UHGV virus genome: UHGV-1280364
Origin: a virus
Direction: 5' to 3' (one strand)
Length of the DNA: 18,393 bases
Part shown: in pieces, positions 7,803 through 18,259 of the stretch
How the letters are laid out: each line of letters begins with the position of its first letter
Numbering within the stretch: the stretch's first letter is position 1
Position numbers and translations under genes: made by a program
The notes under the pieces: generated by a model
Told to the model about the DNA's origin: nothing
The model's database searches: none
What the model saw: only the letters and a program-made list of their open reading frames with translations

Positions 7803-8259
7803 TCTTTAGCTCCTCGTATTTTGAGCGCGGTAACTGATAAATCGTGATGCCTACAGGCTTTCCATTGCTGGTATAAGCATCATCAAGGTGACCAACACGG
7901 GTAGCGCCAAGCAAACGGATAATTGCCCGTCCGTATTTCGTGGTGTCAGGAACCATAGTGATGCTGTTAAGGAATGGTGAGTTTTCGAGAAGCCATTTGC
8001 AGAATAATCGATGCCCTTGCAGTGCATATTCGCCACGGAATCCGGGGTCGTACACCGCATGGCATTCAACAACGCTATGCCAGAAGTTACGCACTTCATG
8101 CACTCCGACCAGCATCAGTCCTTCGTAGATGCCGAGGTATACCGCATCAGGCTTGATGTAGTATTTGTCTCCACTGTCTACGATATTTCCCGTGTTTGCC
8201 GGGTTGTTGAGGAATTCTGCAAGCTTCACCGGATTATCGATGAGCTTTATTTCCATCAC
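7777..8259 (-). CDS. Hypothetical phage protein in the gp14 position (160 aa)
   Basis: Complete ORF between the tail needle and gp7-like genes, overlapping both neighbours as is usual in this operon. No family recognised. Confidence 0.4.
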
Positions 8260-9209
8260 TGCTCCGCAATGATTTTGATGGTTGTGGCAGTAAACGCCGC
8301 ACCATTAGACTGAATGGTTAACGTGCTGCCATTTGTGGCAAGAAAGCCGTCTTTATCCACGCTGAAGAACGTAGCTAACAGGATGTTGTCGGTTGTTGTC
8401 GCCGCATTACGACTGCTTACCAGTGTGTCAGGAACAGAGCCGGAAAAGGTTAGCTGCATTGACCTGTTGGCGGTTCCGCTGGGCCACGTCCCGACGATCG
8501 ACAGCTTGAAGAACAAGGTTTTGTTCTCGTTGAACACAACCATCTTGTTGTTAACGGTGTCGAAGAATGGTGCCAACGTGCCGGATGACGGCGTGAGCGT
8601 TTTCAGCAGGCTAACAAGGTTGGTCGGCGCTGTCGGAATGGTTACTGATACGCCAGAGTAAACAACCTCTGATTTCTTTCGCGTGATGGCATACTCAAGC
8701 GCAGATATTCTTGTTGAGTGATCACCAACTGTGCTTTGTAGCGTCGAAATACTTCCCTCTGCCGCTGTGAGCCTAGTATCAAGTGCGTCGATATCGGTTG
8801 TATTCTGAGTTATTCGCGCATCATGGTTTGCTAACTCAGATTCATTGGCAGCAATTCGCGTCTCGTGATCAGCCAGCTCTGTTTCGGCAGCAGTAATCCT
8901 TGTTTCATGATCTGCAAGAGTGCTTTCCGCTGCTGCGATTCTATGTTCATGATTGACGAGAGTTGCTTCAGCAGCAGCAATTCTGGATTCATGGTCTGCA
9001 AGGGTGACATCCTGCTCATCATTCTTCACCTGTGCATCATAAGCCCCCTTCCCTGCTTCGTTGGCCTTGTTCGCCACGTTACCAACATCAGCACCCTGTG
9101 CGATAACGTACAACAGATACGACTGCGAGAAGATATTGCGTGGAAGGACTGATGTGTCGAGTCGTGTAGCCTGAATGATTACCGGCTCATTGAGATTCGA
9201 ATCAGCCAT
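8256..9209 (-). CDS. Tail needle protein (gp26-like) with a non-P22 C-terminal domain (317 aa)
   Basis: N-terminus [43 protein letters not shown]...[13 protein letters not shown] matches the P22 gp26 N-terminus as recalled. Followed by 14-residue repeats and a C-terminal domain unlike P22 (Sf6/HK620-type knob suspected). Confidence 0.85.
8790..9000. repeat. Imperfect 42-bp tandem repeats encoding the tail-needle coiled coil
   Basis: About four to five tandem units encode repeats of the form [11 protein letters not shown]... (for example [56 protein letters not shown]). Boundaries approximate. Confidence 0.7.
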
Positions 9210-10627
9210 TACTCAATCCTTATCTGGCAGCCAGACAGAGTGACAGGTGACTTCGTGATAACGCGCAATTTGAAGCCGACATTTTTCCTGATTCGCCCGA
9301 CACGCTTCCACAAAACGCGTTTGTCGTAAACGAACGGTTCATTCTGTTCAATCATCTGCTCACGTCCGTAATTTATGCCGTCAGTGGTTGCAGAGAGGAA
9401 CAGGCGGTCGGCGTACTGCGCAACGCCAGTTGACGATTCAACCTCAAGATCGAACACTCTGGCGTTATCCGCTTTGAACAACGGAGTAAACAGCAGGTGT
9501 TCTTGCTGTAGCCCATACTGGCTGCTGATATCGAACTGCAATTTCCCGGTCACGGACTCCAGCTTATCTCCGCACGTTATCTGATTGCCTTCATAAATGA
9601 AGTCGATAGCGCGGTACACATCGTCATACAGGCCTGTTTTCAACACACACCATTGCGGACCATTTGCGCTTGAAGATGCGTCGTACACGAGGACGTGACG
9701 CGGAAGATGGATAATCAGCAACTCATGCGCATCAAACCGCAGCGATTCCATTACGCCATCAGCCAGTTCATCAGCAGTGTAGGAGCGGAGAATTTTCTCA
9801 ATGCTCGCGCTGGCGATTGGTGATACCTGACCGGAACCGATGATGTACACAGACGGCGCACCTGTTGCCGGATTGCTGATGAACGCATACGAATCAGCAA
9901 ACGGCGTTTTGCAGTAAGTCCCGGCGATGCCTTTTTGCACCATCAGTGATGGCTGTGCGACATACAAAGCAGCACCAACGGTGGTTGCACCAGTCAGGGA
10001 GAAATATTCAATCGTCGATGAACCAAAGCAGACGATGAAGTCTCGCCATGTTCCGATGCCGATAATACCGTCAGGCTGAGACTCAGCACGATATTGTGCG
10101 CTGTATCGGTCAGGATGTGATTCGTCTTCAGGGTCAGTGATAAACCATGAATCAGTGCCGTCTTTTGACCACGCATAACGCCCACGCAAGCGCGTAATGT
10201 CACGAACCGAACCTAACTCATACTGCGTGAATCCGCTGTCTGTAGGCCAGTTTGAGACGGTTTTAACTGTGCCATCATAGCGGTATTCGACCAGTTGCCC
10301 GTTAACGCCTACAGCCTGAGATGTACGACCATGCGCCATTGATACACGACCACTTCCGGCAACATCACCGACTTCACTTTCGCCCTTATACAGCTTGCCA
10401 CCACATACGCGATAAACAGCATTCTGCGCCATGTTGTACTCGACGCCCCGCGATACGCCGTTCACGTCGGAACGTTTGGCAATGCCCGGGAATGAGCGAA
10501 GATATCCGCTGCTGTTGAGGATTTCTTTGGGTGTAGCCAGCATATTCACTGGCAGATAGTCGATATAGTCAGCGCTTCGAAAGTCTTTGCCGACACCTTT
10601 CATAAGCGGAAGTTGCTGAATCGGCAT
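9209..10627 (-). CDS. Tail accessory / head-completion protein, P22 gp10-like (472 aa)
   Basis: N-terminus [49 protein letters not shown] matches P22 gp10 as recalled, and the length is the same (472 aa). Confidence 0.88.
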
Positions 10628-10636
10628 TTATTCACC

Positions 10637-11098
10637 TCACGTACTCGGATTATCTTTCTCGATGTAAAACCGATTCCACGTAAACGCGCTTTTGTTACCA
10701 CTACCGCGAGGCATGTCATTTCGCCGCTCAAGTGGTGGTATTTTGGTTAAAGCGATACAGATTGTCTGATATGCACTGTCAGCAGCGGTAAGGAGAGCAT
10801 CCGACGGCTGAATGACGTTATCCATGCACATCTGCACAGCGAGCTTCAAAGCGACGCCATCATTTGCCCATGCAGGGATACCTGAATCATCGTCAGGTAA
10901 CGGCATGATGCCGTTTTCTGTATCAGCAAACTGATATCCAAGCTCGATACCTTTCGCCTGCCATGCTGCCATCATGTCTTCGAGATCATTAATGGCATCT
11001 TCAATTGCCTGAGGGTCAGCATCTGTCAACGTGGCATTGGAATACAGCCCGGCTTTTCGCAAAGCCTTTAGAACGAGATCACCCTTCGTTTTCGCCAT
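10637..11098 (-). CDS. Head-completion / tail accessory factor, P22 gp4-like (153 aa)
   Basis: Resembles the P22 gp4 N-terminus (KTKGDLV..ALRK.G......LTD..PQ...DA.DDLE.MMA.W) and sits between the coat and gp10-like genes. Confidence 0.75.
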   Translation of the reverse strand: MAKTKGDLVLKALRKAGLYSNATLTDADPQAIEDAINDLEDMMAAWQAKGIELGYQFADTENGIMPLPDDDSGIPAWANDGVALKLAVQMCMDNVIQPSDALLTAADSAYQTICIALTKIPPLERRNDMPRGSGNKSAFTWNRFYIEKDNPST

Positions 11099-11267
11099 CT
11101 TCTTCCGCCTTAGCCACTTTTTGCTTCGTTGCGGTTTCTTCAGGAGTTTTTACCCAACCTTTTTTCAGGTGAGATTTAACTTCTTCGTCATCAACAATGA
11201 TGTAATCGACAGCAAACTGACCACAGGTGATCATGTTGCCCGGCTTATAGAGCATTGTTCGTGCCAT
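11079..11267 (-). CDS. Small hypothetical protein (62 aa) between coat and gp4-like genes
   Basis: Start at the Met of MARTMLYKPG with GGAGAAG upstream (plus 11272-11278). The longer 74-aa track ORF would begin inside the terminator. Lys/Glu-rich C-terminus. Confidence 0.45.
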   Translation of the reverse strand: MARTMLYKPGNMITCGQFAVDYIIVDDEEVKSHLKKGWVKTPEETATKQKVAKAEEDGENEG

Positions 11268-11278
11268 TGTCTTCTCCC

Positions 11279-11302
11279 AATAAAAATGGGGCCGAAGCCC
11301 CA
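11279..11302 (-). terminator. Rho-independent terminator immediately after the coat gene
   Basis: Hairpin ggggc-cgaa-gcccc (11288-11301) followed on the minus strand by a U-run (plus 11281-11287 taaaaat). Located 7-30 nt downstream of the coat stop. Confidence 0.7.
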
Positions 11303-11308
11303 CCTAAA

Positions 11309-12562
11309 TTACTGCCCGGCAATAACGATGCCCGTATATTCAGGAACCAGTACAGAGCAACCGTACAGAGTGGTGAAACGCGCAGTGGTTACGCCTTTGA
11401 TGTGGTCGAAGGCGTAAGACATGATCAGCGTAGCGCCCTGCTCGGTGGTTGCTGTCATTACCTGTGGACCCTGACCAGTCGGGAACGCTAGTTTGCCGTA
11501 CATCAGCTCAACAGAACCATCAGCCCAGAACAGGTTGGCCGGTGCGGCATTTTTGTTGAGAATGGTGATTGCTGCACCATTTGCCGCGTTAGCATCAACG
11601 TTTGCATATGGACGGCTGGCGACATCTGCGTTGTCAGGCGGCAGAATTTTCGGGGAGATAGTCACTGTCGTTCCGCTTACTGCCAGAACGCGGAATACCT
11701 GCGGCTGCCCGGTGGTGTCTTTGGTGATCTGGTGTACAGAATTCACGCCAGCAATGGTGAACGCATCACCAACCTGCAACCCAGATGCAGATACCGTAAT
11801 AGTCCCCTGTCGGTTATCCACTGGCATATCGTTGGCATCTTTCGCTTCAACCTTGTGCGCAGGTTCAGCCGCCAGCGTCAGGGAAGTTGCTGTACCCTTC
11901 GGAACACGACCAGAAATATCGGTCTTGTAGCTATCGAAGGACGCAACCGGAGGGATCTGCGCTTTTTCGTATGCTGTCAGGGTTGCGCCCTGAGCGTAGG
12001 CACGGTGACCAAGCTCGCCAGCAAGGTCTTTGTAGTTGAAGGGGTTCCAGAAAGAGCGACGGTTGATACCCTGTGGTACACCAATCGCCGTCATGGTGGC
12101 ATCAATACCTGCCGCACAGTTCCACAAATCACGGCCCTGTGAACCAGTGGTTGAGTCAGCCATTGTGATCACGTTAGTAGCACGCTGCGTGACCATGGAA
12201 ATCAGGTCAGAGTCAATCTGTGCAGCAAGGCGCATACCTGCGGCGCGACCAGCTTCAGTTTTATGTTCCGGGTCACGCATTTCACGCGCATCCAGAGTGT
12301 ACAGAATGTTTTTCGGCTCCTTGAACACAGAAGGAACAAGGCGCTGAACCAGTGCTGTTGGCGTTTTGCCGCTGAGATCTAGGCCTTCCTCAATGTTCAT
12401 GTGGTAATGCTGCGGACGATACAGAACATCACCTGCTCGCTGCATTGCTGTATCACCGGGACGGAATTTTTTAGCGTTACGGGAAACTACGCAGGCGGCC
12501 TCAAAGCCTTCAACGTAGTTTTCGAACATGATTTCAAGGTTTTTTGCTAATTGGTTAGCCAT
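11309..12562 (-). CDS. Major capsid (coat) protein, P22 gp5 / Sf6 gp5-like (417 aa)
   Basis: Synteny (scaffold, coat, gp4) and recalled similarity to P22 coat (for example YANV.....A..I.ILN...A..N.FWAD). Followed by a strong terminator. Confidence 0.85.
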   Translation of the reverse strand: MANQLAKNLEIMFENYVEGFEAACVVSRNAKKFRPGDTAMQRAGDVLYRPQHYHMNIEEGLDLSGKTPTALVQRLVPSVFKEPKNILYTLDAREMRDPEHKTEAGRAAGMRLAAQIDSDLISMVTQRATNVITMADSTTGSQGRDLWNCAAGIDATMTAIGVPQGINRRSFWNPFNYKDLAGELGHRAYAQGATLTAYEKAQIPPVASFDSYKTDISGRVPKGTATSLTLAAEPAHKVEAKDANDMPVDNRQGTITVSASGLQVGDAFTIAGVNSVHQITKDTTGQPQVFRVLAVSGTTVTISPKILPPDNADVASRPYANVDANAANGAAITILNKNAAPANLFWADGSVELMYGKLAFPTGQGPQVMTATTEQGATLIMSYAFDHIKGVTTARFTTLYGCSVLVPEYTGIVIAGQ

Positions 12563-12580
12563 GCTTAATGCTCCGATAGG

Positions 12581-13474
12581 TTATTTTTTTGCCTTTTTAG
12601 CGGCGAAATACGGCGTCCAGTCACCAGTTTCCAGCGCCTTGGCTTTCAATTTGCCGAGGTTGTTGATTACTGCGCCGTTGCTCCCCTTAACTGTCGGGGT
12701 TGTGGCTGCCGTGGTTTTTGCTTTTGGCATGATTCTGGCCTTAGATTCGATACGTTCCAGCAGACGACCAATTGCTACGGGGTTGGTAGCTTCTGCCAGT
12801 TGCTTGCGCAGTTCAGCGTTGCGACCAAGCGCCAGAACAACGATTTCCGGCTTCTCTGACTCAAACAGGATCGCGTTTTGTGTCTCGATGGGGATTTCCT
12901 CGAGTACGGCCTGTTCTGCTTCCTGATAGCCAGGAACCTTGAGAGCCTTAACACGTTGCTGATATTTGGATAATCGCTCTTGATAAGCAGCCTGAAGCTC
13001 CTGCTCCTTCTGCTTGCGAGCCATCTCCTGTTGCTGGTACTTTCCGTTATCCTCTGCCCACTTAGCCATGCGTTGCTGATAGATTTCTTCATCGAAACCG
13101 ATGTCCTCATCATCCAGTTTTGGCATTCGCGGTGGTTGAGTGATTACCGGCTGCTGCTCGACGGGTTTCTGAGACTGACGCATCAGCTCTTTCAGCTCGC
13201 GGTCTTTCTCTTTAATCGTCTTGCGCAGGTGTTTTACCAGTCCATGCTCTGCGCTATCTTCGCTGGTTGGCGAATCCAGCTTTTCATCACCAAAGTAGAA
13301 TTCCTGTTCTGATTCGTCGTCATCAGTTTCAGTAGCTTCCTCTGCATCATTGCCGGAGGACTCACTGCCATCTTCTGTTTCGACTTCTTCAGCCAGTTCG
13401 ACATCATCAGGAATCTTCTCTGATGTATCGGTTTCGATTTCAACTTCTGGTGTGTTTTCTGCCATCTGGTCCAT
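12581..13474 (-). CDS. Scaffolding protein (297 aa)
   Basis: Lies between portal and coat. Highly acidic N-terminus, charged helical middle, basic C-terminal tail (KLKAKALETGDWTPYFAAKKAKK). Confidence 0.75.
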   Translation of the reverse strand: MDQMAENTPEVEIETDTSEKIPDDVELAEEVETEDGSESSGNDAEEATETDDDESEQEFYFGDEKLDSPTSEDSAEHGLVKHLRKTIKEKDRELKELMRQSQKPVEQQPVITQPPRMPKLDDEDIGFDEEIYQQRMAKWAEDNGKYQQQEMARKQKEQELQAAYQERLSKYQQRVKALKVPGYQEAEQAVLEEIPIETQNAILFESEKPEIVVLALGRNAELRKQLAEATNPVAIGRLLERIESKARIMPKAKTTAATTPTVKGSNGAVINNLGKLKAKALETGDWTPYFAAKKAKK

Positions 13475-13564
13475 TTGTTCCCCCTGTTTACTCGATGTTC
13501 AGCCCATCGGAAGGCAATAGGGTGCCAGGCCTCATAAAGACAGCCATTGCACGTTATGGGTTAA

Positions 13565-15763
13565 TTACTGCTGTGGTTGTTGCTGAGTTAATTTTTGCAG
13601 GATGCTGCTGATGTCCATGCGCAGCGCATGGCCCTGTGCCTGACTTTTCAGGACAAGCTCTGCATCAGCACGGGCATTATCTCCTTGCTGTTGCTGGAAC
13701 TGTCCGAGCAGTTTCAGCGCCTCACGGATATCAGATTTTTGCTGGCTATCGGCAGATGCGAGGATTTTCACAACATTTGCCGCAGCAACCTGAGCATCCG
13801 TCTGTGCCTGGAATGCTTTAACCTGAATGGCTGCCTGTTCGTTCTGCGCTTTCTGCAATTCAGCCTGACCAGCAAGAAGCTGACCTTGCGCAGCAACCAT
13901 AGCCGGATCTGGCTGACTGGCCTGTTGTTGTTTCGCCTGCTCAACCATCTGCTGCTCTTCTGGCGTTCTCGGCTTGATAACTCCAGACAGAAGCAACTGA
14001 TTGCGGTTGTATTCTTTAAGGTCGTCCATCCCTTCGCCATCCATATTGTCGAGAATCATCGACGATACAAGGTCGTGCTTCGGCGTTCCTGGTGGGATAA
14101 GTGCCAGCATGGAAAGTAACGACTTAACCGTTGCATCACGGCGAGTAGCGAACGACTGACCGACATCGACAGTCACTTCATAGTTACCCTGCGAAAGGTC
14201 GTTAAGCGCGATAACCTGCCCTGTCTGACGGTCAACCACTTCACCAGTCATCAGCGCCACGTCATCGCTGCCGTCCTCATTAACGATGCGCATTGGCGTA
14301 TCGCTGCCATAGACTTCACGCGCCATAGAAAGCCACACAACGCCAGCGCGACGCATGGATTTAGCCATGTTGTCCATGTAGATATAGGACTGCGTATCCA
14401 TCCGGTTAAAGATGCTATCAACGGTATCGGTGGCGACGTTGCTCGGCATGTTCTCAAGCTGCGACGCACCTGTAATTTGCTGAATAGCCGTTCCGGTGTA
14501 CTGCAATAGCCCGGCAAGAGCTGGCGGCATTTGTGTCGGAGGTGTATAACTGCTGACCTGAGCCTGCGCAGTAATATCTCCGTTTTTGTTTTTCAGACTG
14601 ACCATCGGCAGGAACGCCGGGCGCTTTTTGTTGCGCTCCGCCCAATGAGTGGCAAGAGGACCAGGAATCATGTCAACATCAACTACAGGAATGCCATCAC
14701 CGCCAGCCTGAGTAGCGTTATCTGCAATCATGGAAACCATCAGGTTCTCAAGACGCTGCGCATCCATCGCTTTTGCTGCGTGGCCTTCGATTCGCTCCTG
14801 ATTATCAACAAATGAGCGACGCCCATATACCGGGATGAGAGGAATATGTTCGCCCGGAATACGCTTCGGTTCTTCCAGCCATTCAGCGCCAGACAGAAGA
14901 CCGCAATAAACGCGGCGCTTCTTCACCGTTCGCTCGCCAATCAGTTCGAATGCACCATCGGTCAGCTCGTCGACAATATCTTTGATTTGCTCTTCATCAT
15001 AGATTGCCGTTTCTCCGCTGACAGGGTTACGCCATGCTGTGAGCTTCACCTTCTCTATGCGGACTTCGTAGTAACGTCCAACATAGATGGCATCTGGCGT
15101 TGACCAGTCATATTGAGTGCCAGTGTCATCACGAGAAAGGCTTGCCGCGATGGAATCAGGGTATTCAGCCTCGAACGCTTTAGGCGTCATGGAGAACATT
15201 TCCATAGCCCACATAGCATCAGAGCGGTCATATTGCTTGCTGTCCTGATCGAAGAAGACGCATGTCGCTGGGTCGTAAACAGGAAGAAGGCTGATGCGTC
15301 GCTGCTCGTTACTCGGATCCATTTCATCTTCGTAATCAGCACACATGCGGAAACAACCGAATCCGCCCGTTACAGCATCATCAAATGCGTTATCACACGC
15401 TTCGCCACCGGATGTTTCCTGATAATCAGCGCGGAATTTGCCGTTCATCTTTTCGGCTAACGCTTCCGATGCCTTGTCATCCTTCGGCCTGAATTTAACG
15501 CTGATGCGATTCTGCCGATACTCGCCAATGATGCGATCACATTCACGGGCAATCTTATTTAGTTCAAAGCGCGGATAATGCTCAAACCTGCCTTCATCAA
15601 ATGAGTAACCAGCGTTTGTGCTGCCTTCCCACTGTGCGCCGGATACCCGGACGAAACGTTGAGCCTCAATAATCTGCTCACGCATATCCTGCGTTGCTGA
15701 CCAGGCATTATCAAAGTTGCACAGCACCTTGCGATGCCAGTCAGTCATCTTTTTTTCTGCCAT
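13565..15763 (-). CDS. Portal protein, P22 gp1-like (732 aa)
   Basis: Motifs match P22 portal as recalled (KRRVY....GEHIP..PV.G; PEEQQ.....Q...DPAMV.AQG.LL.GQAEL.KAQN), including the Gln-rich C-terminal barrel region. Size similar to P22 gp1 (725 aa). Confidence 0.9.
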   Translation of the reverse strand: MAEKKMTDWHRKVLCNFDNAWSATQDMREQIIEAQRFVRVSGAQWEGSTNAGYSFDEGRFEHYPRFELNKIARECDRIIGEYRQNRISVKFRPKDDKASEALAEKMNGKFRADYQETSGGEACDNAFDDAVTGGFGCFRMCADYEDEMDPSNEQRRISLLPVYDPATCVFFDQDSKQYDRSDAMWAMEMFSMTPKAFEAEYPDSIAASLSRDDTGTQYDWSTPDAIYVGRYYEVRIEKVKLTAWRNPVSGETAIYDEEQIKDIVDELTDGAFELIGERTVKKRRVYCGLLSGAEWLEEPKRIPGEHIPLIPVYGRRSFVDNQERIEGHAAKAMDAQRLENLMVSMIADNATQAGGDGIPVVDVDMIPGPLATHWAERNKKRPAFLPMVSLKNKNGDITAQAQVSSYTPPTQMPPALAGLLQYTGTAIQQITGASQLENMPSNVATDTVDSIFNRMDTQSYIYMDNMAKSMRRAGVVWLSMAREVYGSDTPMRIVNEDGSDDVALMTGEVVDRQTGQVIALNDLSQGNYEVTVDVGQSFATRRDATVKSLLSMLALIPPGTPKHDLVSSMILDNMDGEGMDDLKEYNRNQLLLSGVIKPRTPEEQQMVEQAKQQQASQPDPAMVAAQGQLLAGQAELQKAQNEQAAIQVKAFQAQTDAQVAAANVVKILASADSQQKSDIREALKLLGQFQQQQGDNARADAELVLKSQAQGHALRMDISSILQKLTQQQPQQ

Positions 15764-16212
15764 ATCAACCTACACCACAAGGAATTGAGTAACTGGAATA
15801 GTCGGGTTGCGCAGCCGACTCCGGGCAATGCATACACATCATCAGCGCATCAGCCAGGTTAGGAGATGGAATACCGAGCTTCTGCTTCATTTCGACCTTA
15901 GTCATAAGCTCCAGCTTCCCGTTGTGCGCCGGATACCCGGACGAAACGTTGAGCCTCAATAATCTGCTCACGCATATCCTGCGTTGCTGACCAGGCATTA
16001 TCAAAGTTGCACAGCACCTTGCGATGCCAGTCAGTCATCTTTTTTTCTGCCATATCAACCTACACCACAAGGAATTGAGTAACTGGAATAGTCGGGTTGC
16101 GCAGCCGACTCCGGGCAATGCATACACATCATCAGCGCATCAGCCAGGTTAGGAGATGGAATACCGAGCTTCTGCTTCATTTCGACCTTAGTCATAAGCT
16201 CCAGCTTCCCGT
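15633..16212. repeat. Perfect 290-bp tandem duplication spanning the terminase stop and portal start (15633-15922 and 15923-16212)
   Basis: Direct comparison shows the two copies are identical, with 3-nt microhomology (tgt) at the junction. Each copy carries the portal 5' end (131 nt), the intergenic base and the terminase 3' end. Confidence 0.92.
15765..16004 (-). pseudogene. Chimeric ORF created by the 290-bp duplication (out-of-frame portal 5' sequence fused to a second copy of the terminase C-terminus)
   Basis: The last 51 residues (GKLELMTKVEM...SIPCGVG) are identical to the C-terminus of the 377-aa terminase ORF. The N-terminal 28 residues come from the duplicated portal start read out of frame. 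Confidence 0.7.
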
Positions 16213-17817
16213 TGTTATTGAATTTGCGCTGAATCTGCGTCAGTTCTGCAAACAGCTTCTCCAGCATCTTCTCGCCTATCGCTTCTTTGTCGAAACTCAG
16301 CATGTCGTCGGGGTCTGCATACTCACCGTGGACAACCGCCCGATATGTCAGATACAGCCTGTCAGCCAGCGCGTAATAGAATTGCGCTCGCTTATTACGG
16401 AACACATCGCCAATAGTGCGAACGTTGTCGCCCTGCACGACTTCATCAGCCCATGCTCCGGCCTGATATGGTGCATCTTCATCGAATGGCGATTCGCTGC
16501 CCTTGAACATCGTGGCGGTGATTTTCTTGCCGGAGAACGCTTCCGTTGTCTGTCTGCGTAGCCCGGCACCAACACCATCACCATCCCACAGGTAATGGTC
16601 AGCGCCGTCTTCAATCGCCAGCGAAGTAGCCCAGTCAGCACCCTCGTTGATGTCCATCAGCAGACCTTCGGCAATGCGCTTAACTACCGAACCGTGACGC
16701 GATGCATAACCTTTAGCATCTGGTCCTGTATCTGACGGGTCATGCGCAGAGACAACAGCGCCTTTCGCTTTCCATCCGAGTTTCTTGTGCGCATCGGTAG
16801 CAGCTTCAAGCCATTCACGTTTGATGATTGCCATATCACTTGCGCTCACTGGCTCACCAAGCCAGATGTGACGATACAGTGTCGGGTTTCTGCGTTTACA
16901 CTCTTCCATCTCCAGACGGAGAACTTCAGGAAAGTGCGGGTTGTCGGTGTAGTTCACCGTCAGCAGGCAAATATCATCGGGAGGATTTACAACGAATCGC
17001 TGATAGGTATCGTCGAGTATGTTCTTCGGGTTAAAGCTCACCCATATTTCAGAGAACGGCTTGCGGATGGTTGGTATCAGGATATCCCATGATTCCTTCG
17101 TTACCGCTTCCGCTTCCTCCACCCAGCAGATATCAATGCCTTCGAGCGATTTAATCTTCGTCGGGTTGTTTTTGATGCCGTAGAACATGAACTCACTGGC
17201 TCACCAAGCCAGATGTGACGATACAGTGTCGGGTTTCTGCGTTTACACTCTTCCATCTCCAGACGGAGAACTTCAGGAAAGTGCGGGTTGTCGGTGTAGT
17301 TCACCGTCAGCAGGCAAATATCATCGGGAGGATTTACAACGAATCGCTGATAGGTATCGTCGAGTATGTTCTTCGGGTTAAAGCTCACCCATATTTCAGA
17401 GAACGGCTTGCGGATGGTTGGTATCAGGATATCCCATGATTCCTTCGTTACCGCTTCCGCTTCCTCCACCCAGCAGATATCAATGCCTTCGAGCGATTTA
17501 ATCTTCGTCGGGTTGTTTTTGATGCCGTAGAACATGAACTCAGCATTCGTTCCGAGATGACGAATCATGGAACGCTGAATTTCAAACTCAGCCGTATACC
17601 CTTCACGCTCTATGGTGTCTTCAAGCAGCCGGATTACCGAATCGCTGATACTGTTTTGCAGTTCACGAGCGCAGAGAATACGCACTGGCTGCCGACGCGC
17701 CGCTTCAACAAGCAGCCTCGCAATTGCCCATGACTTACCGCTACCTCGACCGCCTTTGGCGACTTTGTAGCGATGCGCCTCAATGAACGGTTCAAAGATA
17801 GGATTAATCGAGGTCAT
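16055..17817 (-). pseudogene. Terminase large subunit, interrupted by a frameshifting 347-bp internal tandem duplication
   Basis: Walker A motif in the N-terminal ORF ([16 protein letters not shown]). The two track ORFs (17101-17817 and 16055-17188) share a duplicated 115-residue segment. Removing one 347-bp copy gives a single 1416-nt ORF (471 aa), close to the Sf6 gp2 length I recall (470 aa). Its start overlaps the small-subunit stop as ATGA. Confidence 0.85.
16845..17538. repeat. Perfect 347-bp tandem duplication inside the terminase large subunit gene (16845-17191 and 17192-17538)
   Basis: Copies are identical on direct comparison, with 4-nt microhomology (ctca) at the junction. 347 is not a multiple of 3, so it shifts the frame. 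Confidence 0.92.
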
Positions 17818-18236
17818 TTTCCGAATAGAGTGCTCATCGGTGATGTTTCAATCTGGATTGCGCCGCCGTCTTTGCCGACAAGCTCGTTAGTTACCTTGTC
17901 GCCATACTTACGGGGATTCATTCGGGCCAGCGCCCATTTGCGGGTATCAACGCGAAGTCTTGCCTTTGCCACCTCAGCAGCATCTGGAATCGCAGTGTCA
18001 GCAATTTCGAATATCTCTTCGAAAATAGAATCAGCTCGTGCCTCAGTTGCCTTCGCGTACTTGTCGCGAAAATCCTCATGCTTTGCCAACCAGCGGAAAA
18101 CAGTGGACTTATCCGGCATGCCAGGACGCTTACATACTTTCAGCAAACTTTCGCCAGAAGAAAGCAACGAGCAGATATCGTCAGCCACCTCCGGCATATA
18201 ATCAGAGGGGCGACCAGCTTTTGGTTCAGTCGCCAT
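17814..18236 (-). CDS. Terminase small subunit, Sf6 gp1-like (140 aa)
   Basis: Translation [80 protein letters not shown]... matches the Sf6 small terminase (140 aa) as recalled. Translationally coupled to the large subunit. Confidence 0.85.
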
Positions 18237-18259
18237 ATTTATCTCACTTAATTGTCATT

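Follow-up and report, generated by a model that had tools for sequence, protein, structure and literature searches.

A stretch of 18,393 nucleotides from a virus (UHGV virus genome UHGV-1280364, called the window in what follows) carries a large terminase gene, terL, that is broken by a perfect, out-of-frame tandem duplication of 347 nt. The locus raises the question of whether this phage has a genuinely damaged packaging gene or whether the damage belongs to the DNA as it was prepared and assembled. The preliminary description, made from the sequence alone, had offered either a very recent event or an artefact, and this is the right dichotomy. The duplication is one of three such events in one sequence, none of which is found in any related genome; it therefore represents either damage of very recent date or a by-product of technique, and no new biology. 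The lesion type is already known, as are the gene and the phage. The occurrence of three companion events tilts the balance toward a technical or minority origin.

Judged by its genes, the window is the late (structural) operon, on the minus strand, of an ordinary Sf6/CUS-3/HK620-type P22-like phage. The small terminase gene and terL are followed by genes for portal, scaffold, coat, head-completion, needle and ejection proteins; distal to the ejection genes are an immI-like region with Mnt/Arc and an antirepressor-like gene and, last, the start of the tailspike gene. The closest records are CUS-3, Kapi1, Huey, Sf101, HK620 and Sf6, together with hundreds of E. coli prophages, at 95–98% DNA identity. 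The same order of terS, terL, portal, scaffold, coat, homologues of gp4/10/26/14/7/20/16, immI region and tailspike N-terminus is shared by CUS-3, Kapi1, Sf101, HK620 and related Lederbergvirus phages and E. coli prophages. Unlike the window, these are single-copy at all three duplicated sites among the relatives listed or aligned. The window consists of phage genes only, with no host flank. Because it contains no host DNA, the words "prophage" and "lysogen" used in the preliminary description stand as a reading taken from the relatives and not as something seen in the window itself.

The two copies of the terL duplication, termed duplication a, lie head to tail with nothing between them, as in a simple tandem duplication. 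Their position relative to the terminase and portal genes is as follows.

Positions 13565–15763, minus strand: portal gene, 732 aa, intact (Pfam P22_portal, E=3e-170); the exact protein is found on the sibling contigs L002 and L023.
Positions 16055–17188, minus strand: second terL ORF, 377 aa, which starts at internal Met95 and keeps the native stop (TerL 95–471), with a partial ATPase domain and the whole nuclease domain.
Positions 16845–17191: duplication a, copy 1, identical to 17192–17538; the downstream copy on the minus strand, in which TerL codons ~93–209 are encoded again.
Positions 17192–17538: duplication a, copy 2, upstream in the direction of transcription; the novel junction is at 17191/17192.
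Positions 17539–17542: CTCA microhomology of duplication a, also present at 16845–16848 and 17192–17195.
Positions 17101–17817, minus strand: truncated terL ORF, 238 aa, comprising TerL 1–209 with the complete Terminase_3 ATPase domain and a 29-aa out-of-frame tail.
Positions 17814–18236, minus strand: small terminase of the Sf6 gp1 type, 140 aa (Pfam PF20901 Sf6_terminase, E=1e-44), the stop of which overlaps the terL start; this exact protein is widespread.

Tandem Repeats Finder returned an array at 16845–17542 with a period of 347, 2.0 copies, 100% matches and 0 indels. Base-by-base extension gave s[i]=s[i+347] for i=16845..17195, a run of 351 nt, and an exact match of this length cannot have arisen by chance. 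The perfect 347-bp tandem duplication that had been described at 16845–17538 corresponds exactly to the two copies, and translation of the ORFs bears out that it is internal to the gene and shifts the frame (347 mod 3 = 2; terL is on the minus strand).

The gene had been called a large terminase, and this assignment is supported. The restored TerL of 471 aa matches Pfam PF04466 (Terminase_3) at residues 15–206 (E=1.6e-41), its translation contains the ATPase Walker A P-loop GGRGSGKS at residues 22–29, and it is ~99.8% identical to Sf6 gp2 (PDB 4IDH). It aligns to Sf6 gp2 (4IDH/4IEE/4IFE) over residues 1–456, with one substitution up to residue 454, and residues 208–456 align to the Sf6 gp2 nuclease-domain structures 5C10/5C12 with E about 1e-164, while the Pfam Terminase_3C model scores below its cutoff (20.9 bits vs 26.7). 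Its position between an Sf6-type small terminase and a P22-type portal is likewise that of Sf6 gp2. The window differs from Sf6 gp2 in the interruption of the ORF by the 347-nt out-of-frame repeat of codons ~93–209.

Both predicted pieces, the 238-aa product with its frameshifted tail and the 377-aa ORF beginning at an internal Met, were recovered on translation. No single uninterrupted ORF joins the two TerL domains in the window; one appears only after a 347-nt copy is deleted. In silico deletion of 16845–17191 gave a 471-aa ORF, as the preliminary description had anticipated, and this ORF is identical to the terL called on the sibling contig L002. The 238-aa product retains the PF04466 match (residues 15–206, E=2.9e-42), and the 377-aa ORF is without a Walker A motif. 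The sequence upstream of the internal ATG of the latter, GTGAGTTCATG, would be at best a weak Shine-Dalgarno placed too close to the start. Neither TerL piece alone should package DNA.

Duplication a is not isolated. Two further near-perfect tandem duplications, absent from the preliminary description, occur in the window at 15633–16215 (period 290) and 2590–3022 (period 233), which brings the microhomology duplications within 18 kb to three.

Positions 15633–16215: duplication b, 290 nt repeated perfectly in tandem across the terL stop and the portal start; microhomology of 3 nt (TGT).
Positions 2590–3022: duplication c, a net insertion of 233 nt, with a 200-nt direct repeat (2590–2789 and 2823–3022).
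Positions 2787–2832: junction of duplication c, in which the forward copy runs to 2789 and is followed by TGC, inverted patches, TATGGGGCT and the forward copy again.

These companions mean that the authenticity of duplication a has to be weighed differently from that of a single lesion. Only duplication a is disruptive. Duplication b leaves the terL 3′ end and the portal gene intact, with a 51-aa decoy ORF derived from the portal N-terminus between them, and duplication c spans the overlap of a 199-aa gene and a yafO-like gene, intact copies of both of which remain. The unit lengths of 233, 290 and 347 nt are evenly spaced, each 57 nt longer than the one before, and so make up an arithmetic series.

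The junctions themselves are informative about how the copies were joined. The parental sites of duplication a resemble each other imperfectly (14/21), and this match terminates in the CTCA microhomology. The junction of duplication b falls in TGT, within a CTTCCC-NN-TGT match of 9/11. As a null expectation, 200,000 random duplications were simulated in the collapsed window: P was 0.056 for microhomology of at least 3 nt and 0.019 for at least 4 nt, with a joint probability of about 0.001 for duplications a (4 nt) and b (3 nt). The homology at the parental breakpoints of duplication a is thus beyond chance.

Duplication c is not a simple duplication, and contains two templated inverted patches at its junction, with microhomologies of 3, 6 and 9 nt. 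The forward copy passes via the 3-nt overlap TGC into the reverse complement of 2732–2746, then via the 6-nt overlap GGTTTT into the reverse complement of 2517–2552, and returns to the forward strand at 2599 via a natural 9-nt inverted repeat, TATGGGGCT. A T>G change is present at 2832, the switch point of this junction. The architecture is that of serial template switching by a polymerase.

All three duplications look like products of polymerase template switching. RecA-independent microhomology-mediated tandem duplication and quasipalindrome template switching are forms of replication slippage, as studied in E. coli. The exact copies joined in microhomologies of 3–4 nt within longer imperfect matches resemble the former, and junction c, with its passage through a natural 9-nt inverted repeat and its copying of the opposite strand, resembles the latter. 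Such events are individually rare, however, and three in 18 kb are beyond spontaneous in vivo rates. In the proposed sequence of steps, a polymerase copying terL would leave its template after the sequence ending in GAACATGAACTCA and re-anneal 347 nt back at another CTCA, at the end of the 14/21 imperfect match. The stretch would then be copied a second time, giving an exact head-to-tail duplication, shifting the frame and splitting TerL in the molecule as written. Two more events of this type, of 290 nt and 233 nt, would have affected the window, the latter with two templated inverted patches. The presence of three like events in one window suggests a single shared cause for all three.

Searches among relatives recovered the undivided arrangement. 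A 2994-nt query (15400–18393) covers 2360 nt in every relative listed, and the gap of 634 nt is close to the 637 nt that duplications a and b add up to. Over the region of duplication c, a 2001-nt query covers 1768 nt among the relatives listed, and the duplication is a net insertion of 233 nt there. A 200-nt query centred on junction a matches 634 E. coli genomes and, among the matches listed, does so as two pieces in parental order. A 60-mer across junction a was found in 0 of 5,426 complete E. coli genomes, and junctions b and c were not found in these 5,426 genomes either. In exact scans, the junction a 37-mer was not found in GTDB species representatives, IMG/VR or JGI metagenomes, and junctions b and c were not found in IMG/VR; an exact scan with a 139-nt non-junction stretch had two IMG/VR UViGs as its only hits, and in these neither a nor b is duplicated. 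The 238-aa truncated TerL product is not on record.

Two simpler explanations for the extra terL DNA were considered and rejected. A natural polymorphism or domain repeat does not fit an arrangement that shifts the frame and that none of the 634 terL-bearing E. coli genomes has. Nor does extra DNA that copies the adjoining terL exactly fit the insertion of a mobile element or a homing endonuclease, such as is found next to terL in some relatives.

Three Logan contigs assembled from short reads show 100% identity to the window over their aligned spans and serve as its siblings.

Logan L001 (SRR2298102): positions 2993–14700, 100% identity.
Logan L002 (SRR2298124): positions 7973–18393, 100% identity; equal to the window minus duplications a and b, with an intact 471-aa TerL.
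Logan L023 (SRR2298207): positions 12696–15919, 100% identity; without duplication b.

An intact terL is also carried by a further sibling contig, L025. Between the window and the sibling contigs there are 0 base substitutions and three structural changes, all of duplication type with units of 233–347 nt. Three duplications between siblings that are otherwise 100% identical point to one recent process.

The ends of these contigs bear on the junctions as well. L001 ends at 2993, exactly 30 nt (k-1, for the Logan k=31) inside the right end of repeat c. This is where a contig is expected to end when a unique flank meets a branching repeat, and the end therefore provides independent support for junction c. 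In the whole gene index, a contig start at the end of repeat c is recorded only for SRR2298102. At its other end L001 breaks off at 14700, a site without a repeat in the window, whereas duplication b would break it at 15662; this suggests that the reads of SRR2298102 hold extra branches or junctions beyond those of the window. A screen of edge-truncated gene products for contig-end signatures of duplication a gave 0–5 chance ends per codon, none of them from the SRR2298xxx runs.

A different pattern was found near duplication b. Contigs from 21 unrelated samples start at 15923–15925, compared with 0–5 at five other codons tested. This cluster marks a natural module joint, at which the last ~52 terL codons travel with the portal gene. 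Junction b lies exactly on this joint, and the sibling contig L023 ends 6 nt away. We estimate the probability of such a coincidence by chance at a few percent, and it is compatible with recombination between co-resident related prophages.

Several explanations of the three junctions may be weighed against these observations. That they are purely computational, with no physical junction behind them (contig ends concatenated unmerged, or sequence inserted in silico), is improbable. The perfect identity of the copies, the occurrence of three events in one short sequence and the systematic look of the 233/290/347 series with its step of 57 would all suit such an origin. Unmerged contig ends should give arbitrary junctions, with neither microhomology nor templated insertions, and this is not what is seen at a, b or c. 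The microhomology at a and b exceeds chance, and the 36-nt reverse-complement patch of junction c runs seamlessly into a pre-existing 9-nt inverted repeat. The overlaps of 3–9 nt are far below the k or minimum overlap of any assembler, and in an assembly made by another pipeline the contig is interrupted at a distance of exactly k-1 from where repeat c ends. In-silico duplication, which the length series had prompted us to consider, was rejected on the microhomologies and the architecture of junction c. Together, these microhomologies, this architecture and the shortness of the overlaps indicate that the junctions were made on physical DNA, through annealing followed by extension by a polymerase. 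The microhomology at a and b and the patches at c argue against a purely computational artefact; they do not argue against junctions from minority molecules or from amplification. Less credible still is a functional arrangement, either a working two-piece terminase of separate ATPase and nuclease or a reversible on/off switch for packaging. The break does fall at the ATPase/nuclease boundary, leaving the full Pfam ATPase domain in the 238-aa piece and the full nuclease domain in the 377-aa piece, and perfect repeats can collapse precisely. The arrangement is nevertheless present in 0 of 634 terL-bearing E. coli genomes and in no phage record, GTGAGTTCATG offers the internal ATG at best a weak and too-close Shine-Dalgarno, the 377-aa ORF lacks Walker A, and the accompanying duplications b and c have no such rationale.

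The choice is then between junctions fixed in the phage and junctions present in some of its molecules or made during preparation of the DNA. We favour the latter, to which we give about an even chance: junctions from minority molecules, or from amplification or library chimeras, would have been threaded into the contig and would not represent the fixed state of the phage. The junctions would have come from a minority of molecules or from chimeras formed in pre-sequencing amplification or library construction, and would have entered the contig when a graph-based assembler traversed one node two times. Walking a node twice would account for copies that are 100% identical and for changes that are of duplication type only. 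A back-edge walk by an assembler yields duplications only; deletion edges form bubbles that are resolved to the majority, and inverted edges end contigs. Units of 233–347 nt are within the range that short reads can thread. On this reading of minority or technical junctions, terL would be intact in most templates. It fits the three structural changes in 18 kb, all of duplication type, with 0 substitutions relative to the siblings, and it fits L001, which shows the branch expected for junction c and has an extra stop at 14700. Against it, microhomology and templated insertions are equally a signature of in vivo slippage or template switching, and a second, independent assembly pipeline also supports junction c, so that this junction at least is present in more than one read. 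Standard isolate assemblers, moreover, usually drop low-coverage chimeric edges. The best-known in vitro source, phi29 multiple displacement amplification (MDA), is only a partial match. Its chimeras occur at ~1 junction per 22 kb, are intramolecular and proximal, and are primed by complementarity of 2–21 nt, often copying the opposite strand (Lasken & Stockwell 2007, PMC1855051). The window resembles them in how densely its junctions lie, in the microhomologies and in the inverted patches at junction c, with overlaps of 3–9 nt and partners 233–347 nt apart. However, 85% of the chimeras in that study were inversions with deletions and proximal direct joins made up only 11 of 475 (PMC1855051), whereas duplications a and b are clean direct duplications, atypical of this source, and junction c is inverted only in its 15- and 36-nt patches before returning to the forward strand. 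The rarity of proximal direct joins weakens MDA as a complete explanation.

The leading alternative, which we hold to be possible with less confidence than the minority or technical reading, is a fixed in vivo mutation: RecA-independent slippage or template switching, acting at microhomologies, would have produced the three duplications, and essentially all copies of the genome would carry them. They could have originated in a single burst during prophage replication or repair, or by recombination with a co-resident related prophage. terL would then be a true, very young pseudogene, with no packaging unless the repeat collapses. The microhomologies and the templated inverted patches are consistent with such an origin, as is the branch at junction c in the independent assembly of SRR2298102. 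Duplications b and c spare their flanking genes, and the gene struck by duplication a is one that a resident prophage can do without, so that all three would be tolerable in a lysogen. The position of junction b on the natural module joint defined by 21 unrelated contig starts, with the end of L023 6 nt off, fits recombination with a co-resident P22-like prophage. Spontaneous short tandem duplications are much rarer than base substitutions in bacteria. Three of them in 18 kb with 0 substitutions are far above the neutral expectation. None of the three junctions is found in any other genome (634 E. coli genomes match the terL segment, those listed in parental order), the siblings L002 and L023 are without the duplications that their spans would cover, and L001 stops at 14700 and not at the 15662 that would be expected if the window were exact for SRR2298102. 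A narrower version, that the three duplications are real and come from one replicative accident confined to the late region of the prophage (a break-induced or template-switching burst), appears unlikely. The burst would be supported by the location of junction b exactly on the module joint, where the graph branches in sibling samples, and an aborted recombination with a related prophage resident in the same cell may have triggered it. By analogy, such a burst would be a bacterial counterpart, on a small scale, of the clustered rearrangements described in eukaryotes, which are joined at microhomologies and contain templated insertions.

Which of these applies determines how the window should be read. 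If the junctions are technical, which we think likelier, then minority or chimeric junctions have been written into a contig as perfect tandem duplications and subsequently read as pseudogenes. Annotators who meet perfect, frameshifting tandem repeats would do well to look for companions in the same contig and to check read depth first.

If duplication a is real, it would be a very young, reversible packaging knock-out in an otherwise intact Sf6/CUS-3-type prophage. The preliminary description had concluded that the prophage cannot package DNA and is defective. TerL is indeed split and packaging should fail, but the statement is too absolute, because a 347-nt perfect direct repeat can collapse. 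Recombination or slippage between perfect direct repeats of 347 nt restores the wild type precisely, and a lysogen population would therefore yield intact revertants. "Defective" would then mean a strongly reduced titre, not zero. A real duplication would also offer a snapshot of the first step of prophage decay, together with a case of clustered template-switch duplications.

Besides the 347-nt duplication inside the large terminase gene (terL), the window contains the following features:

2144-3380, + strand: moron-like pair of accessory genes, adjoining the Mnt/Arc immunity-I region
2590-3022: duplication c, net gain of 233 nt, junction at 2787-2832
8883-9006: degenerate tandem repeat, 42 nt x 3, 68% matches, inside a 317-aa ORF (8256-9209)
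15633-16215: duplication b, perfect tandem of 2 x 290 nt, with a 3-nt microhomology (TGT)

The accessory pair consists of a 199-aa gene, whose relatives have no Pfam match on record, and a gene for a 139-aa YafO-family toxin. The two genes overlap in relatives, and the pair is common across CUS-3-type prophages. The junction of duplication c is built from two reverse-complement patches, copied from 2732-2746 and 2517-2552, with overlaps of 3, 6 and 9 nt joining the pieces and, at position 2832, a T>G substitution. Such an architecture is the signature of serial template switching. The Logan contig SRR2298102_175 ends precisely k-1 (30 nt) inside the right end of the duplication c repeat.

The lengths of the three repeat units, 233, 290 and 347 nt (2590-3022, 15633-16215 and 16845-17542), differ by exactly 57 nt each time, an arithmetic series in which every member equals 2 mod 3. 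The probability of this arising by chance is estimated at about 1%. As for the 42-nt repeat, relatives of the 317-aa ORF carry the Pfam domain Phage_tail_NK, and the repeat may reflect coiled-coil heptad periodicity instead of a recent duplication.

Three sibling Logan contigs, all 100% identical to the window where aligned, stop at different points within the phage: SRR2298124 at 7973, SRR2298207 at 12696 and SRR2298102 at 14700. The end at 7973 coincides with a homology boundary found with an IMG/VR locus (L024). The ends at 12696 and 14700 could result from co-resident related phages, uneven coverage or additional junctions.

Duplication b encloses both the stop of terL and the start of the portal gene, and does not itself disrupt either gene. 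The duplication repeats the final 51 codons of terL and creates an extra 51-aa decoy ORF carrying the portal's first 44 aa. Its junction coincides exactly with a natural hotspot of contig ends at 15919-15925 (equivalent to 16209-16215). Unrelated isolates and metagenomes contribute 21 contigs whose start falls at 15923-15925, while the sibling contig from SRR2298207 has its end at 15919. This pattern suggests a mosaic joint at 15919-15925, with the portal gene travelling together with the C-terminal ~52 residues of TerL. The isolate-derived IMGVR_UViG_2563366852_000004 has a terS-terL segment 100% identical to the window with one copy of each duplicated unit removed (15000-18281), but from portal to needle the identity is only 98.9%. 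The contrast illustrates module exchange around the terL/portal joint.
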